Assembly: GCF_035687085.1 (NCBI RefSeq)
Contig: NZ_DASRYS010000014.1
Span: 16,840 to 80,839, forward strand
Reading direction: 5' to 3'
DNA from: Hyphomicrobium sp.
GTDB lineage: Bacteria > Pseudomonadota > Alphaproteobacteria > Rhizobiales > Hyphomicrobiaceae
Length of the DNA: 64,000 nt
Positions within the stretch are counted from its first letter, which is position 1, and every line of letters begins with the position of its first letter. Below, one piece after another: positions 28,741 to 35,804 of this stretch. Under the pieces are notes generated by a model. That model searched no databases and was not told where the DNA came from. It worked only from the letters and a program-made list of their open reading frames with translations. A program made the translations under genes and the position numbers.

Positions 28741-29652
28741 TCAGCCAGCCGCAGAGCGGGGCTGGTTCTGTTCCTTGTGGTTGCGAAGCGCTACGCTCAT
28801 CGTTTCGCCAACGAGATGCGGGCTTTCGGCCATGATGACGCCGGCCCGGCCGAGTGCGGCGATTTTGGCAGCAGCAGTATCGCGGCCATGAACCAGAAGT
28901 GCTCCGGCATTTCCCGCACGACGTTCCGACGGTGCGTGGCTGCCCACGACGAGAGCGACGACTGGCACGCGTGGCTTTTTCTGGCGAAGGAGATCAGCAA
29001 CGTACTGCTCTTCTGTGCCGCCGACCTCACCAATGAGTACGATGCCTTCCGTTTCTTCGTCAGCCAAAAACAGCTCAACACAATCCTTCATCGTCAGGCC
29101 GTGAACAAGATCACCGCCCACTCCTACGCTCGTTGACAGACCGAGTCCCGCTGCGGAAATTTGCGCGATGACTTCGCTCGTCAGTGATGCAGAGCGGGAA
29201 ACGACCCCGATACCGCCTGGCCGCACGTTGCCGGTTGCGATGACGCCGAGCTTGCAGACGCCCGGAGCCAGGATGCCTTCCGAATTCGGTCCGACGAGCC
29301 GCGTCTGCGACCCCTTCAGGGCATGGCAGACGCGCACCATGTCGAGAACTGGAACGTGCTCCGTCAATGTGACCACCAGCGGAACTTCAGCTTCGATTGC
29401 CTCGATCATGGCGGCAGCTGCGTGCATCGGCGGCGCGAAGATCACACTCGCGTTGGCACGCGTCTGCTGAACCGCTTCTGAAACCGTATCGAAAATCGGG
29501 AGATCGAGATGGCGCTGCCCGCCCTTCCCTGGCGTGACGCCGGCGACGACATTGGTTCCATACTTCATCATGGCCGCGGTTTGCTGCGAACCAGCGCGAC
29601 CGGTCATGCCCTGGCAAATGACGCGCGTTTGGCGATTAACAAGAATCGACAT
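28741..29652 (-). CDS. Succinyl-CoA synthetase/malate thiokinase alpha-like protein lacking the catalytic His
   Basis: ICQGMTG, GVTPGKGG and GEVGG are retained; canonical RMGHAGA reads RAGNAGA and SRSGTL reads SRSASL; 303 aa. Confidence 0.8.
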   Translation of the reverse strand: MSILVNRQTRVICQGMTGRAGSQQTAAMMKYGTNVVAGVTPGKGGQRHLDLPIFDTVSEAVQQTRANASVIFAPPMHAAAAMIEAIEAEVPLVVTLTEHVPVLDMVRVCHALKGSQTRLVGPNSEGILAPGVCKLGVIATGNVRPGGIGVVSRSASLTSEVIAQISAAGLGLSTSVGVGGDLVHGLTMKDCVELFLADEETEGIVLIGEVGGTEEQYVADLLRQKKPRVPVVALVVGSHAPSERRAGNAGALLVHGRDTAAAKIAALGRAGVIMAESPHLVGETMSVALRNHKEQNQPRSAAG

Positions 29653-29663
29653 TATTTTCCTTC

Positions 29664-30806
29664 CTAGCGTGCTTCGGCTACGGCGTGCTCGGCGGCGGAC
29701 CGCATGTCCGCGCAGTCGATGATGCGGCAACCAAAATCTTCCAGACGTGCTCTCGCGGCATGAGCATTGTTACCGGCCAGCCGGACCACTGTCGGCAGCG
29801 AGCGGCCGGTGCGGCGCATAGCGATGCCAAGGCCTTCGACGACCTTATCGCAAGGCTGCATGCCGCCTCCGTGGACATTGATGAGAAGAGAACGAACCTT
29901 CGGGTTGTCGAGGATCATTGCGAAACCACGGGCAATGTCCACGCTCGTCGCGCTCGTGCGGATGTCCATGAAGTTCGCCGGCCGGCCTTTGGCTGCGCGT
30001 ATCATGTCGACGGTGGCGAGACCGAGCCCGGCGCCGTTGGCAGCAACGCCGATGTCACCATCGAGGCTGACGTAGTTCAGACGGTAGCTTTGCGCGTTGA
30101 TCTCGAGCTCGTCATCTGCGCGGAGCGCAAAGAGTGACGGGTGGCGGAACATTGCGTTGTCATCGACGGTCAACACCGCGCTTAGCGCAAGCAGCTCACC
30201 TTCCGGCATGATCGCCAACGGATCGATCTCGATGCGGCTGGCATCAAGCTCGACGAAGGCGCGCATCAGGCCGTGCGTCAACGTCGAAAAGGCGTTGCGG
30301 GCATTGTCTGGAATAGCGAGACGCGCTGCAAACAGCATCACGTCGTACTCCGGGAAGGTGTGCCCCGTGCCGAGGGTCAATTGCTGCACGCCAGCCTGGC
30401 CGAACGCGGCTACGTTGCCCGCTGCATCGCAGTTTTGCGCAGACATCACGATGCCCCGCACTGCGGGATCCACGAACAGCGACAAAGAAATTCCGCGCTC
30501 TGCGATGACGGCTGCTTCGACCATGACGCGCTTGATCGATTGCGTCTTCAGGCCGCCGTAGTCGGAAATTTTGCGCTGGAGCAGGTCGCCTGCCGCCTTT
30601 TTCACCTCGGCGGGGGAATAGACGAGATAGGCATCCGATAGTTTCCGGCGGAAGCCGTCGACCTGAGCTTTCACAACGAAGCTTGGAGTGCCGAGTCCTG
30701 TGGCTACCTCTTCTGCTTGGTCGGGTGTGATGGCGACGCCCCACTGCGGGGACTTCAAGCCGAAATCCGACAACAGCTGCTTCGTCTGGAACTCGTGGAG
30801 CTTCAT
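29664..30806 (-). CDS. Succinyl-CoA synthetase/malate thiokinase beta-like protein with a degenerate ATP-grasp domain
   Basis: LHEFQTK, VVKAQV, DDNAMFRHP, NGAGLGLATVD and VVRLAG are retained; the GRGKAGG, EINP and ALDAK motifs are altered; 380 aa. Confidence 0.8.
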   Translation of the reverse strand: MKLHEFQTKQLLSDFGLKSPQWGVAITPDQAEEVATGLGTPSFVVKAQVDGFRRKLSDAYLVYSPAEVKKAAGDLLQRKISDYGGLKTQSIKRVMVEAAVIAERGISLSLFVDPAVRGIVMSAQNCDAAGNVAAFGQAGVQQLTLGTGHTFPEYDVMLFAARLAIPDNARNAFSTLTHGLMRAFVELDASRIEIDPLAIMPEGELLALSAVLTVDDNAMFRHPSLFALRADDELEINAQSYRLNYVSLDGDIGVAANGAGLGLATVDMIRAAKGRPANFMDIRTSATSVDIARGFAMILDNPKVRSLLINVHGGGMQPCDKVVEGLGIAMRRTGRSLPTVVRLAGNNAHAARARLEDFGCRIIDCADMRSAAEHAVAEAR

Positions 30807-30912
30807 GCACTCCTCCTGTTTGGTTTTTTCCTTTTACTACTAGATCATGCGTTCGAAAAAAAGCGGCGAAAGCACGGAGGAAGCACCTTCGCCGCCGAAG
30901 CATTGCGGGTAA

Positions 30913-32187
30913 TCACTCGGCTGCGATTGGAACCTGATCGCCTAGAGCGCCGCTTGCCTCGATTTCTTGAATGTGATCCTCGTCGAGTTGCAGAACCTCG
31001 CGCAGAATTTCTGCGGTGTGCTCACCGAGAAGCGGCGAGCGCTCGACGACGGTTGGACTTTCGGAGAGCTTGATCGGATTGCCAACCGAGAGATACTTGC
31101 CCCGAACGGGATGATCGACCTCTACGATAGTGCCCGTGCGGCGAAGCGAGGGCTCTTCGGCGATTTCTTTCATCGAGAGGATCGGCCCGCATGGAATGTG
31201 ATACTTGTTGAGTATCTCCATGGCCTCGTACTTCGTCTTACTCGAAGTCCACTCCTCGATCGTTGCGAATATGCTTTTCAGACGCGGCAGGCGCGCGGCA
31301 GGCGTCGCGTAATCTGGATCGGTGATCCACTCTTCTTTGCCGATTACTTTGCAGATGTCGGCCCAGACCGGCGCTTGCGTAATGAAGTAGATGTAAGCGT
31401 TGGGATCGGACTCCCAATTCTTGCATTTGAGAATCCATCCGGGCTGACCGCCACCCGACGCGTTTCCTGCGCGCGGAACGGTGTCTCCAAATGCGCCACC
31501 TGGATATTGCGGATATTCGGTAAGCGGACCGCGCTCCAGGCGCTGCTGGTCGCGCAGCTTCACGCGGCAGAGATTCAGCACGCCATCCTGCATGGCGGCA
31601 TCGACTCGCTGCCCGCGCCCGGTGACCGTGCGCTGGTAGAGGGCGGTGACGATGCCGAGCGCAAGATGCAGGCCCGTACCGCTGTCGCCGATCTGCGCTC
31701 CCGTGATGAGCGGAGGACCATCATCGAATCCGGTTGTAGAGGCGGCACCTCCCACACACTGAGCGACATTCTCATAGACCTTACAGTCCTGGTACGGGCC
31801 CGGACCGAAGCCTTTGATCGATGCCACGATCATGCGTGGGTTGAGCTCTTGAATACGCGCCCAGGAGAAACCCATCCTATCAAGGGCACCGGGCGCGAAG
31901 TTCTCGACGAGGACATCGCAAGCTTTGATGAGGTCTTCGAGCACCGCCTTGCCCGTGGCGTTTTTCGTATCGAGCGTGATGGACCGCTTATTGTGGTTCA
32001 GCATCGTGAAATAGAGGCTGTCCGCATTCGGCACGTCGCGTAGCTGCGTCCGCGTTACGTCGCCGACGCCTGGTTTTTCCACCTTGATGACGTCGGCTCC
32101 GAACCAAGCCAATAACTGGGTACATGCCGGACCCGATTGCACGTGTGTGAAGTCGAGAACGCGTACGCCGTCGAGCGCCTTGCCCAT
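30913..32187 (-). CDS. frc: Formyl-CoA transferase (class III CoA-transferase), paralog 2
   Basis: [48 protein letters not shown] (catalytic Asp), [10 protein letters not shown]; 424 aa. Confidence 0.88.
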
Positions 32188-32274: not shown

Positions 32275-32291
32275 TGGCATACTGAATACCA
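32275..32291. promoter_or_regulatory. Candidate GntR operator
   Basis: TGGCAT-N5-ATACCA upstream of frc paralog 2. Confidence 0.7.
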
Positions 32292-32401
32292 CAGCGTCAA
32301 TACGAAGCGCGACGAGATATACCATTCGCGCGCTGCTAAAGCTCGCTCTCATGCAAATCCTGCAATGCCGCAATGCAGCAAAGCCCTACAAACGCGGTAT
32401 A

Positions 32402-32418
32402 TGGCATGCTATATACCA
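32402..32418. promoter_or_regulatory. Candidate GntR operator
   Basis: TGGCAT-N5-ATACCA upstream of the 44-aa ORF; an overlapping degenerate copy lies at 32395-32411. Confidence 0.65.
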
Positions 32419-34487: not shown

Positions 34488-35804
34488 ATGAAAATCGTGA
34501 ATGGAATGGGCCGCGGTTGGCGGCTCTGGGCGGCGGCGCTCTTGGCCAGCACGTGGGCCATGCCGGCAGCTGCAGCGGATCTCGGCGGCGATTGCTGCGC
34601 CGATCTTGAAGAGCGGGTGGCCGAACTTGAGGCTACGACGGCGCGCAAAGGCAATCGCAAGGTCAGCCTGACCGTTTCGGGCTGGGTCAACGAAAGCGTC
34701 ATGTGGTTTGACGACGGTGCGGAGTCGAACGTTTACGTCGGCACCAACCCCGTCGAGCAGAGCCGCGTGCGCTTCGTCGGCGAAGCCAAGGTGACGCCCG
34801 ACGTGTCGGCCGGCTACGTGCTCGAATTCGGCATCTACGGCGCCAGCGCCAACAGCTGGGACCAGGACACGCCGGACGGCAGCACGCCCAACAGCGTCTC
34901 CGTCCGCAAGAGCAGCTGGTTCTTGAAGAGCAAGACCTTCGGCAAGGTGACGGTCGGCCAGGACGGCACGGCGACCTACCATTTGCTCGACGACGCCGAC
35001 ACGACCATGACGCGTAACTTCTACGATGGCGAAGCCTCGGCGATTTACGCCCGGCCGTTCTTCCTGCGTGACTCCTCGGGCGACCGCATCGGCACGCTCA
35101 AGTGGAGCGACGCGCTGCGCGGCTTCTTCAATTCGACGCCCGGCGATAGCGGCCGCCGCAACATCGTGCGCTACGACACGCCGACCTTCGGCGGCTTCAG
35201 CGTCGCTGCGGCCTGGGGTGAGGACGACCTGTGGGACATGGCCGTCATCTATAAGGGCGAGCTCGGCGACTTCAACCTGAACGCGCGTGCCGGCTACGGC
35301 CAGTCGTCCGATGGTTTCTCAACGCCGTGCCACGGCTCGACGGGCACGCCCGACAACGCGATGGACTGCGAGTGGTGGGGTGTTTCGGCCTTCCTGCAGC
35401 ACACGCCGACGGGTCTCTTCGTCTTCGCCGGCTACGGCGACCAGAAGGATGGCTCGAAGGATCCGGCGATCGACGCGGTCATCGAGGATAAGGACTCGCA
35501 GACCTGGTTCGTGCAGGCTGGTGTCGAGAAGAAGTGGTTCCCGCTCGGCAAGACCAACTTCTTCGGCGAATACCGCCGGGATGATGCGGGCTCGAACGTG
35601 ACGGGTACGGGTACCGTCCGCACGCAGGGTGCCGAGATCAACACCTGGGCGATCGGCGCGGCGCAGAACCTCGAGGCGGCGGAAGCAACCCTCTACCTCG
35701 TCTATCAGCACGCCGATGGCGAAGTTCGGGTCGGTCCCGCTGGCACGGAGACCGACCTCTCGGCCCTGCAGCAGGTCATCGGCGGCATGAAGATCAACTT
35801 CTAA
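34488..35804 (+). CDS. Outer-membrane porin (Hyphomicrobium-type)
   Basis: Signal peptide, ADLGGDCCADLEERVAELEATTARKGNRKVSL N-terminus, amphipathic beta-strands, RRNIVRYDTP, C-terminal Phe. Confidence 0.8.
   Translation: MKIVNGMGRGWRLWAAALLASTWAMPAAAADLGGDCCADLEERVAELEATTARKGNRKVSLTVSGWVNESVMWFDDGAESNVYVGTNPVEQSRVRFVGEAKVTPDVSAGYVLEFGIYGASANSWDQDTPDGSTPNSVSVRKSSWFLKSKTFGKVTVGQDGTATYHLLDDADTTMTRNFYDGEASAIYARPFFLRDSSGDRIGTLKWSDALRGFFNSTPGDSGRRNIVRYDTPTFGGFSVAAAWGEDDLWDMAVIYKGELGDFNLNARAGYGQSSDGFSTPCHGSTGTPDNAMDCEWWGVSAFLQHTPTGLFVFAGYGDQKDGSKDPAIDAVIEDKDSQTWFVQAGVEKKWFPLGKTNFFGEYRRDDAGSNVTGTGTVRTQGAEINTWAIGAAQNLEAAEATLYLVYQHADGEVRVGPAGTETDLSALQQVIGGMKINF

Follow-up and report, generated by a model that had tools for sequence, protein, structure and literature searches.

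A succinyl-CoA synthetase-like subunit pair in a Hyphomicrobium oxalate locus that lacks the nucleotide and phosphohistidine sites and is very probably maintained by selection

The beta-alpha gene pair behind frc2

The window analyzed here, a stretch of 64,000 nucleotides from a Hyphomicrobium genome (G000), carries an oxalate locus with a transcription unit on the minus strand. The first gene of this unit is frc2 (30913-32187, minus strand), encoding a formyl-CoA transferase (TIGR03253, 707 bits vs. a cut-off of 504). Directly downstream lies the gene for a beta subunit of 380 amino acids (29664-30806, minus strand), with a degenerate ATP-grasp domain and a conserved C-terminal CoA-ligase domain, followed by the gene for an alpha subunit of 303 amino acids (28741-29652, minus strand) with a CoA-binding domain and a ligase-CoA domain devoid of the phosphohistidine. 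The alpha gene is located within an intact ORF (28741-29730) and its true start is most likely the ATG at 29650-29652 (MSILVNR), which leaves a gap of 11 nt to the beta stop codon. Given this close spacing the two subunits are probably translated jointly; a strong Shine-Dalgarno sequence is found upstream of beta. As the first-pass annotation of this DNA had described, both frames are intact, co-oriented and placed directly behind the second frc, and the order frc2-beta-alpha is conserved in the loci L001, L003, L007, L029, and L114.

A GC-rich hairpin with a T-run (30862-30896, minus strand) separates the stop of frc2 from the start of beta. Every orthologous locus conserves it, with compensatory changes, and it also occurs behind frc2 in G189, G187, and G116, three of the four species without the pair. 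This hairpin may keep expression of the pair low. Two exact copies of the palindrome TGGCAT-N5-ATACCA are located upstream of frc2 (32275-32418, plus strand). In total the window contains four exact sites, also in front of oxlT and oxc, where 0.17 would be expected. Remnants of thiS/thiG were searched for downstream of alpha in the window and none were found.

Both subunits are recognized by Pfam above the gathering cut-offs (beta: ATP-grasp_2, 4e-24, and Ligase_CoA, 5e-13; alpha: CoA_binding, 7e-26, and Ligase_CoA, 6e-17), and thus have the domain composition of succinyl-CoA synthetase (SCS), where alpha consists of CoA_binding and Ligase_CoA and beta of ATP-grasp_2 and Ligase_CoA. The two-subunit architecture and the folds are the same as in SucCD (E. 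coli, PDB 2SCU/1JKJ; pig and human GTP-/ATP-specific SCS), and SCS chains are the best PDB matches of the pair in sequence and fold. The AlphaFold2 models (pLDDT 85.5 for beta; 86.9 for alpha, where only residues 246-254 are low) together with the Foldseek results, with SCS beta chains as best matches of beta at an E value of 1e-39, indicate that the SCS-type folds are kept.

Unlike SCS, however, the pair has no phosphohistidine, no P-loop and no GGxDIE loop, and both Mg-ligand positions are changed. In beta, the former nucleotide P-loop (30633-30662, minus strand) reads VDGFRRKLSD where the alignments predict HAGGRGxAGG (HAGGRGKAGG in its canonical form), and residues 54-56 within it are modeled with a pLDDT below 50. 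The same holds for residues 134-137 at the site of the missing GGxDIE loop, where the alignments place SAQNCDAAGNVAA (30405-30443, minus strand). At 30174-30230 (minus strand) EINP is changed to EIDP (N195D) and ALDxK to ALSAV (D209S, K211V); N195D and D209S affect the positions of the Mg ligands of the E. coli enzyme, Asn199 and Asp213. The alignment also shows that beta Lys46, Arg53, Glu97, and the Glu193 equivalent are retained, and so is the Glu corresponding to E197 of E. coli SCS. The losses in the ATP-grasp domain and the preservation of the C-terminal ligase domain, both pointed out in the first-pass annotation, are therefore borne out by the alignments.

The site-I half of beta (29847-30038, minus strand) is conserved and includes NGAGLGLAT, FMDIRTSAT and HGGGMQPCD; ANFMD and VVRLAGNNA are retained as well, and T285S is the sole lineage-specific change within the C-terminal domain. 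As this domain is conserved together with NGAGLGLAT and the alpha motif SRSASL, the site-I half of the enzyme is kept. The motifs of the carboxylate site differ from those of SCS, as IRTSAT and HGGGMQPCD stand in place of the GGGA and FGGIxRCD of SucC/MtkA.

In alpha, the former phosphohistidine loop (28900-28923, minus strand) reads RRAGNAGA instead of RRMGHAGA, with the changes M246A (GCG) and H248N (AAT, 28909-28911). Asn248 aligns on the phosphohistidine of the solved SCS alpha chains of pig and E. coli, which confirms the reported exchange of His for Asn. RMGH is found in all of 120 database homologues and in 81 of 83 genome loci. The remaining two are L056, which ends at a contig end, and L029 of the sister species G156, which also has Asn and uses the same codons GCG-GGA-AAT as the window. 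Seven further changes are located at 29017-29436 (minus strand): V73A, R99H (TEHVP), Q125E (GPNSEG), M138I, Q172L, T175S, and I210V (GEVGG). These positions are at least 97% conserved in the family, and the changes are common to G000 and G156. With that the lineage of these two species has nine changes at conserved alpha positions, whereas other lineages of equal overall divergence have at most three.

The assumption of a retained CoA site holds in part. GVTPGKGG is kept and the Glu of GE[IV]GG is present, although GEVGG itself is an I-to-V change at a family-invariant position. Three of the nine changes lie within motifs that contact CoA in SCS, so CoA binding itself may be altered. In GLG[LI]STS the window resembles MtkB at two positions. 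In contrast, the reading of SRSASL as a lost phosphate loop was mistaken, as SRSASL, and likewise GPNSQG, occurs in 120 of the 121 closest homologues, in all of which the His is intact.

A third SucCD-like family and the order of inactivation

The pair is a member of a third, so far uncharacterized SucCD-like family, apart from SucCD and MtkAB, that is confined to oxalate loci of Hyphomicrobiales. In a tree rooted with SucC and MtkA it is nested within this oxalate-locus family, whose branch has an SH-aLRT support of 100, and it falls into a clade of 12 rows, again with support 100. The family hallmarks, SRSASL and GPNSxG in alpha and FMDIRTxAT and HGGGMQ[PA]CD in beta, are all present in the window, with GPNSEG and IRTSAT as single-residue variants. 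Window and family thus share SRSASL, GPNS[QE]G, FMDIRT[TS]AT, HGGGMQPCD and the place directly after frc. An identity as SucCD was rejected, since the NCBIfam scores are below the cut-offs (beta, SucC, NF001913, 281.9 vs. 370; alpha, SucD, NF004230, 329.6 vs. 336), the tree separates the two and the genome has its own SucCD with canonical motifs on contig C6. MtkAB, the SucCD-like paralogue of serine-cycle methylotrophs, occurs in the same organisms. It was rejected by the tree, by the MtkA score of beta (NF010647, 243.8 bits vs. 604) and by the genome's own MtkAB beside the malyl-CoA lyase gene mcl on contig C21, whose catalytic motifs are complete and whose beta shares only 36% identity with that of the pair. 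The label MtkAB-like of the first-pass annotation is consequently not appropriate in the strict sense.

Members of the family occur in Afipia, Bosea, Labrys, Mesorhizobium, Phyllobacterium, Methylopila and others. In almost all 83 loci the neighborhood consists of frc/oxc or of oxalyl-CoA-reductase-like and glyoxylate genes; the neighbors are Frc, Oxc-Frc, PanE-like or IclR-Gcl-Hyi-GlxR-PanE. An oxalyl-CoA reductase gene beside the pair is absent in the window and in G156. Elsewhere in the G000 and G156 genomes a 47%-identical ApbA/PanE homologue is found, which may be PanE or PanE2. The other family members have kept RMGH, and outside one Hyphomicrobium clade their ATP-grasp motifs are complete, so that by sequence these intact members are presumably active thiokinases. 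Judging from the gene neighborhood they are probably ADP-forming and make or prime oxalyl-CoA. In current annotation the family appears as succinate--CoA ligase or ATP-grasp protein. A literature search yielded no description of the family, of an ADP-forming oxalyl-CoA synthetase or of an SCS pseudoenzyme, and no biochemical report of thiokinase activity on oxalate or formate for the family was found in the searchable literature.

The first-pass annotation had assumed one coordinated loss of all phosphoryl-transfer residues. Instead the losses were sequential: alpha followed beta, whose loss extends to a wider clade. In the first step the ATP site of beta was lost in one Hyphomicrobium clade while alpha was still canonical. 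In the tree the degenerate betas form one monophyletic clade (SH-aLRT 100) that branches from within the intact, frc2-linked orthologues, and its alphas retain the His with at most two changes at conserved columns. The second step, in the ancestor shared by the window species and its sister, affected alpha: the phosphohistidine disappeared together with eight more invariant residues, which surround site I and the CoA pocket. All nine alpha changes, with the identical AAT codon, recur in G156 (92% amino acid identity), so the loss of His is of shared ancestry. The His-less state is known only from the two species and one 99%-identical metagenomic cluster.

In four close relatives (G189, G187, G116, and G172) the pair is gone without a trace, with frc1-oxc-gntR-oxlT-frc2 retained. 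This clean deletion implies that the pair is dispensable for the locus in near kin, and hence no general component of oxalotrophy.

Selection on the ligase-dead pair

Between G000 and G156 dN/dS is 0.043 for beta and 0.040 for alpha at a dS of about 1.1, with similar values for the ATP-grasp (0.041) and the C-terminal domain (0.038) of beta. These values are in the range of control genes compared between the same two species (frc2 0.047, frc1 0.037, oxc 0.074, oxlT 0.092, and gntR 0.035). The high dS excludes a very recent transfer of the genes between the two genomes, and as the dead state is common to both species, all divergence between them postdates the loss. No stop codon or frameshift is present in the 2 x 683 codons of the pair in G000 and G156. 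The stem branch that leads to the two species is 0.33 for beta and 0.18 for alpha vs. 0.025 for the neighboring genes, which is 7-13 times longer, whereas the summed tips are 0.088 and 0.087 vs. 0.061. The rate thus fell five- to nine-fold after the stem. The stem could also be long, without any acceleration, because the genes came from a donor lineage that was not sampled.

One might still suspect decay towards deletion, with intact frames by chance or a very recent loss of function. The trajectory within the genus, from the lost beta site over the lost alpha His to the deleted pair in four relatives, would fit, as would the ATP-grasp domain of the His-retaining degenerate clade, which is relaxed (dN/dS 0.13-0.20 vs. 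0.05 for the C-terminal domain). However, in the two species that share the dead state dN/dS is 0.04 at a dS of about 1.1 in both subunits and both beta domains, no frame is broken and the rate dropped after the stem. We therefore rejected a pseudogene on the basis of dN/dS and the intact frames in two species, and regard decay as scarcely credible. The first-pass annotation had named close orthologues with His and a dN/dS near 1 as signs of an incipient pseudogene. Orthologues with His do exist, but all of them have at most 73% identity, and a dN/dS near 1 is not seen. Among the 83 genome loci, the exchange of His for Asn is found beyond the window only in G156; dN/dS between the two species is below 1 for both subunits.

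A dN/dS of about 0.04 at this dS, like that of frc and oxc, indicates a selected pseudoenzyme rather than decay. The proposal of repurposing is thereby upheld, since G156 has the same exchange with the same codon. Residues essential for the ancestral reaction were lost and purifying selection followed, so the pair is no ligase but functional, and has another job now. From sequence comparison we regard it as highly probable that the pair is ligase-dead and yet selected.

Possible roles of the pair and of its intact relatives

In PatZ, a known system that the pair may resemble in function, a regulatory domain homologous to the NDP-forming acyl-CoA synthetases offers an allosteric site for acetyl-CoA (PMC12184503). 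The PatZ module is built of CoA-binding, ligase-CoA and ATP-grasp domains but has given up the synthesis of CoA esters and controls the activity of its partner allosterically; PatZ chains are among the PDB matches for alpha. Module and GNAT partner form a single chain in PatZ, whereas the window has two separate subunits encoded after a CoA-transferase gene.

We propose, as suggested by the gene neighborhood, that the ancestor most probably worked as an ADP-forming thiokinase and supplied or primed the oxalyl-CoA or formyl-CoA needed in the Frc/Oxc cycle and in oxalyl-CoA reduction. Its beta nucleotide site was destroyed first, with alpha still canonical, then the alpha His and eight further residues were lost on a long branch, and purifying selection has since kept both genes as strictly as frc and oxc. 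Today alpha and beta would form a complex that works without nucleotide and is still able to bind CoA or a CoA thioester and, at the former site I, an anion or carboxylate. Presumably expressed from the oxalate-regulated frc2 operon, it might serve as a ligand-binding partner or regulator of the handling of oxalyl-/formyl-CoA by Frc2, as the PatZ regulatory domain does for the GNAT domain. As a whole, this explanation of a third-family pair that lost its sites stepwise, is under selection and acts as a partner of Frc2 has in our estimate a probability of about 0.5. The present role taken for itself, a nucleotide-independent CoA- or acyl-CoA-binding partner or regulator of Frc2, is drawn by analogy and is put forward tentatively.

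The main rival, which we consider possible but rather unlikely, is a new nucleotide-independent catalysis at the remodeled site I, where the new Glu125 and His99 would cleave or transfer thioesters without phosphohistidine. From their position near the old thioester site, these residues would suit new chemistry as well as binding. Two phosphate-binding helix N-termini and the carboxylate site are kept, and hydrolysis of oxalyl-/formyl-CoA, phosphorolysis to the acyl phosphate or CoA exchange could be imagined. The nine changes at invariant positions are concerted, are concentrated in the active-site and CoA motifs and have been frozen by selection since, and the C-terminal domain of beta, SRSASL and NGAGLGLAT are conserved like in active ligases. 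SCS itself starts with phosphorolysis of the thioester, a half-reaction for which the His is not required. However, we know of no superfamily member with such a nucleotide-independent activity, a thioesterase beside Frc would waste the CoA donor of the cycle, and the strong constraint on the ATP-grasp domain (0.041) would be left unexplained.

That the pair is still a ligase, with another phosphoryl carrier such as the new His99 or with a nucleotide-binding partner in trans, is very improbable. The related MAG locus L001 does encode a separate ATP-grasp protein of 249 amino acids with all motifs intact inside the oxalate locus, and the residues Lys46, Arg53, Glu97, and the Glu193 equivalent are kept in beta. 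But the search for a stand-alone ATP-grasp gene in G000, G156, and G123 found none, by which a trans-acting partner of the L001 type was rejected, and beta no longer has the P-loop glycines, the GGxDIE loop or either Mg-ligand position. In the predicted fold His99 would moreover lie off the mobile loop that, by the SCS mechanism, must reach the nucleotide site. It also seems improbable, if slightly less so, that upon oxalate induction the dead subunits are exchanged with those of MtkAB or SucCD and damp these thiokinases. Both canonical pairs are present in the genome, mitochondrial SCS provides a precedent in that alpha subunits are shared between different betas, and the interface-forming C-terminal domain of beta is highly conserved. 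On the other hand, beta is only 32-36% identical to its counterparts in MtkAB and SucCD, the closely spaced beta and alpha genes are probably co-translated, and co-variation with the canonical pairs is not seen.

Tentatively, the pair could be the first SCS-type pseudoenzyme with a new job of its own, either an oxalyl-/formyl-CoA enzyme at site I, for example by phosphorolysis to the acyl phosphate, or an acyl-CoA sensor that tunes Frc2, while its intact relatives would be an undescribed ADP-forming oxalyl-CoA (or formyl-CoA) synthetase by which bacterial oxalate metabolism is primed throughout Hyphomicrobiales. At a single locus three states of the enzyme can be compared, intact, dead in beta with the alpha His present, and dead in both, with the end state under selection. 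Such natural inactivation series are rare and suited to ask what a thiokinase scaffold does without phosphoryl transfer.

For the family, the label succinate--CoA ligase is wrong throughout, and doubly so for the dead members. This SucCD-like family is large, and in many Hyphomicrobiales associated with soil and plants it is linked to frc, oxc and oxalyl-CoA-reductase-like genes. The start of the Frc/Oxc cycle requires a CoA ester, and routing oxalate carbon to glyoxylate requires activation without a formyl-CoA donor. The acetyl-CoA:oxalate CoA-transferase YfdE/UctC, the 'priming' enzyme of the cycle, has an unrelated fold (class III CoA-transferase) and does not use ATP; the window pair is no longer able to perform an ATP-driven version of its reaction. 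If the intact members are ATP-driven oxalyl-CoA synthetases, this would answer both where the starter ester of the Frc/Oxc cycle comes from and how oxalate bound for glyoxylate is activated.

A third SucCD-like family at oxalate loci

The window's genome carries three SucC-like genes. An MtkAB pair on contig C21, adjoining malyl-CoA lyase, and a SucCD pair on contig C6 have every canonical motif. Both types are found in 64/64 species of the genus, whereas the third type, that of the oxalate locus, is present in three species only. Here frc2 (30913-32187; TIGR03253, 707 bits against a cut-off of 504) is followed consecutively on the minus strand by the SucC-like beta gene (29664-30806, 380 aa) and the SucD-like alpha gene (ORF 28741-29730), which begins 11 nt past the beta stop, most likely at the ATG at 29650-29652 (303 aa). 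An unrelated glycosyltransferase/epimerase cluster lies 545 nt 3' of alpha. The plus strand encodes an oxlT-like MFS transporter, a porin, a GntR/FCD regulator, oxc and frc1. The Porin_4 gene (34488-35804, plus strand), between oxlT and gntR, is missing there in the sister species G156 and in the other genus members, in which gntR directly follows oxlT, and looks like an insertion specific to the window's lineage.

Four copies of the palindrome TGGCAT-N5-ATACCA are present in the window (0.17 expected), two 5' of frc2 and one each 5' of oxlT and oxc; exact copies of TGGYAT-N5-ATRCCA are located at 32275, 32402, 32907 and 37085. The local GntR/FCD regulator presumably uses this palindrome as its operator, and as it is common to these genes, the frc2-beta-alpha unit belongs to the regulon of the core oxalate genes. 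The frc2 stop is separated from the beta start by a GC-rich 14-bp hairpin with a T-run (30862-30896, minus strand), which is kept with compensatory changes in 6/6 orthologous loci and likely serves as a partial terminator or mRNA-stabilising 3' end for frc2.

In NCBIfam, the window beta and alpha score under the cut-offs set for SucC, SucD and MtkA. The relatives nearest to them in the databases share 62-73% identity in alpha and 48-67% in beta; they belong to Hyphomicrobium, Afipia, Bosea, Labrys, Methylopila, Mesorhizobium and Phyllobacterium, among others. The family has FMDIRTTAT and HGGGMQPCD where SucCD and MtkAB have GGGA and FGGIxRCD, respectively. Almost all of 83 surveyed loci fit one of three contexts: directly 3' of Frc (often Oxc-Frc-beta-alpha or OxlT / Frc-beta-alpha), adjoining an ApbA/PanE-type reductase, the kind to which the M. 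extorquens oxalyl-CoA reductase belongs, or adjoining IclR-Gcl-Hyi-GlxR-PanE. Intact members in Hyphomicrobiales (80 genome loci, L032-L110) are nearly always found in such neighbourhoods. These neighbourhoods lead us to infer that the intact members act in oxalate metabolism as ADP-forming thiokinases, the simplest candidate being an ADP-forming oxalyl-CoA synthetase. Its product would either serve to prime the Frc/Oxc cycle or be reduced to glyoxylate. A need for priming was argued for YfdE, which is unrelated to this family; the half-life of formyl-CoA is 1.9 h (PMC3720670). The family is uncharacterised, with no paper found in a literature search, and is misannotated as succinate--CoA ligase. 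In the window's genome and G156 the sole ApbA/PanE homologue of the oxalyl-CoA-reductase-like gene (G000:C1:22548-23492 and G156:C1:24218-25168, respectively; 46-47% identical) is far from the oxalate locus, and species with the inactivated pair may be without the reductive (assimilatory) branch.

Loss of the nucleotide site and the phosphohistidine

In alignments to solved chains of succinyl-CoA synthetase (SCS), Asn248 of alpha (AAT, 28909-28911) falls on the phosphohistidine, and the loop reads RRAGNAGA instead of the canonical RRMGHAGA. The beta subunit has VDGFRRKLSD where a Gly-rich P-loop is expected, is without the GGxDIE loop and carries EIDP for EINP and ALSAV for ALDxK, while its C-terminal domain is intact (NGAGLGLAT, ANFMD, VVRLAGNNA). 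The alignments thus bear out the motif changes and the kept C-terminal ligase domain reported in the first-pass annotation. Its reading of SRSASL as a lost phosphate loop was wrong, as this is the normal state in 120/121 homologues, all of them His-bearing; GPNSQG is likewise normal for the family. Judged from these residues, the pair is incapable of phosphoryl transfer. Both subunits are predicted to retain their folds: pLDDT of the AF2 models is 85.5 for beta and 86.9 for alpha, with low confidence only in the old P-loop, the old GGxDIE region, the interdomain linker, the old phosphohistidine loop and the extreme alpha C-terminus, and the closest matches by fold are SCS beta chains.

In a beta tree with SucC and MtkA of the same genome as the root, all betas with a ruined ATP-grasp domain fall into one clade (12 rows, SH-aLRT 100, stem 0.35), nested among intact orthologues at the same frc2-beta-alpha position. 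All are changed at G22, G51/G57, T81, Q83, G88, E130, L191, N195, D209 and K211, all within the ATP-grasp domain. Alphas paired with such betas keep RMGH, with no more than two changes at conserved columns. Among 120 homologues from databases and 83 loci from genomes, one of which (L056) ends at a contig edge, the His is missing only in the window and G156. These two alphas have nine common changes at columns conserved to at least 97% in the family (V73A, R99H, Q125E, M138I, Q172L/I, T175S, I210V, M246A, H248N), compared to at most three in any other lineage, even at equal overall divergence. As the codons GCG-GGA-AAT are the same in both species, the His-less state was inherited. The ATP site of beta was therefore lost before the His of alpha.

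Members of the degenerate clade beyond the window and G156, namely Hyphomicrobium sp. CS1GBMeth3 and relatives (L003, L114, L001, L030), combine a fully canonical alpha (phosphohistidine, all invariant residues) with a beta without nucleotide site. One of these oxalate loci, from a Hyphomicrobium MAG (L001; JGI 3300037810), also contains a stand-alone ATP-grasp protein of 249 aa (L001:5384-6133, minus strand), 56% identical to the SucC N-terminal domain and with all nucleotide motifs intact, which may supply in trans the nucleotide site that is dead in this genome's own beta. Proteins of this type are absent from G000 (the window's genome), G156 and G123.

Selection on the inactivated pair

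G156 is a separate species of the genus, 92% identical to the window at the amino acid level in both subunits, and the sister of the window's species in the locus tree (support 97/99). Since the dead state is common to both, all their divergence postdates the loss. Between them, dN/dS (Nei-Gojobori) is 0.043 for the whole beta (ATP-grasp domain 0.041, C-terminal domain 0.038) and 0.040 for alpha, with 0.047 for frc2, 0.037 for frc1, 0.074 for oxc, 0.092 for oxlT and 0.035 for gntR; with dS of the pair ~1.1 absolute values are rough, whereas the comparison with neighbour genes is internal and robust. Under neutral evolution at this dS the 683 codons would be expected to be full of stops in both species, and none was found in either. 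The pair is under strong selection. Where the degenerate clade retains the His, dN/dS is 0.13-0.20 in the more relaxed ATP-grasp domain, compared to ~0.05 in the C-terminal domain; set against 0.041, this means that the window lineage re-tightened the constraint on the ATP-grasp domain.

The stem of the two species measures 0.33 for beta, 0.18 for alpha and 0.025 for Frc2+Frc1+Oxc, with summed tips of 0.088, 0.087 and 0.061, respectively. Relative to its neighbours, beta evolved 13x and alpha 7x faster on the stem, and the pair only ~1.4x faster afterwards. A burst that then gives way to stabilisation is consistent with a change of function, although an unsampled donor lineage could produce the same picture. 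The His-less state has so far been seen in two species only.

Four species of the genus (G189, G187, G116, G172; L116-L119) have the same locus, frc1-oxc-gntR-oxlT / frc2, with frc2 86-91% identical, but lack third-type beta and alpha genes throughout the genome and show no remnant 3' of frc2. In three of the four, frc2 and its hairpin are followed directly by thiS-thiG, where G156 has frc2-beta-alpha-thiS-thiG. This junction and the missing remnant indicate that the pair was cleanly deleted in these near relatives; as they keep the locus, it has no need of the pair there. The hairpin 3' of frc2 persists in G189, G187 and G116. Oxc needs thiamine diphosphate, and in several oxalate loci of Hyphomicrobium thiC, thiS and thiG lie directly 3' of frc2-beta-alpha (L003:12247-15054, L007:12258-15068, L029:12900-13880, L114:8103-8300); at this place in the window no thiamine genes were found.

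Possible roles of the pair

The site-I half of beta (site I being the old CoA/carboxylate/phosphoryl site of SCS) is kept, and the pair is closely spaced and co-regulated. It would act without nucleotides via the remnants of this site, namely the alpha CoA pocket, the two helix N-termini that once held the phosphoryl group and the beta carboxylate pocket. We favour, with a probability of about 40-45%, that the pair binds a ligand and serves as partner or regulator where oxalyl-/formyl-CoA is handled by way of Frc2. This would explain why the protein is constrained throughout, ATP-grasp domain included. The regulatory domain of PatZ, which resembles a synthetase, binds acetyl-CoA and allosterically controls a GNAT domain, and ATP binding by its ATP-grasp part is functionally irrelevant (PMC12184503). 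This domain is a precedent within the superfamily for such a regulator.

The main rival is new chemistry at site I, which is possible but somewhat less probable; the residues that suggest it are the new Glu125 and His99, whose motifs presumably adjoin the CoA thiol, as in established SCS structures. It is improbable that the subunits poison MtkAB or SucCD, slightly more so that a residual ligase activity persists, and most improbable of all is decay. As far as we could find, the literature holds no earlier description of an SCS-type pseudoenzyme. The genus shows three fates of a thiokinase without ATP site: beta dead with the His kept (G188), both subunits dead and conserved (G000, G156), or deletion. 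The pair is a member of the NDP-forming acyl-CoA synthetase superfamily that is maintained although it lacks two of the catalytic features by which this superfamily is defined.
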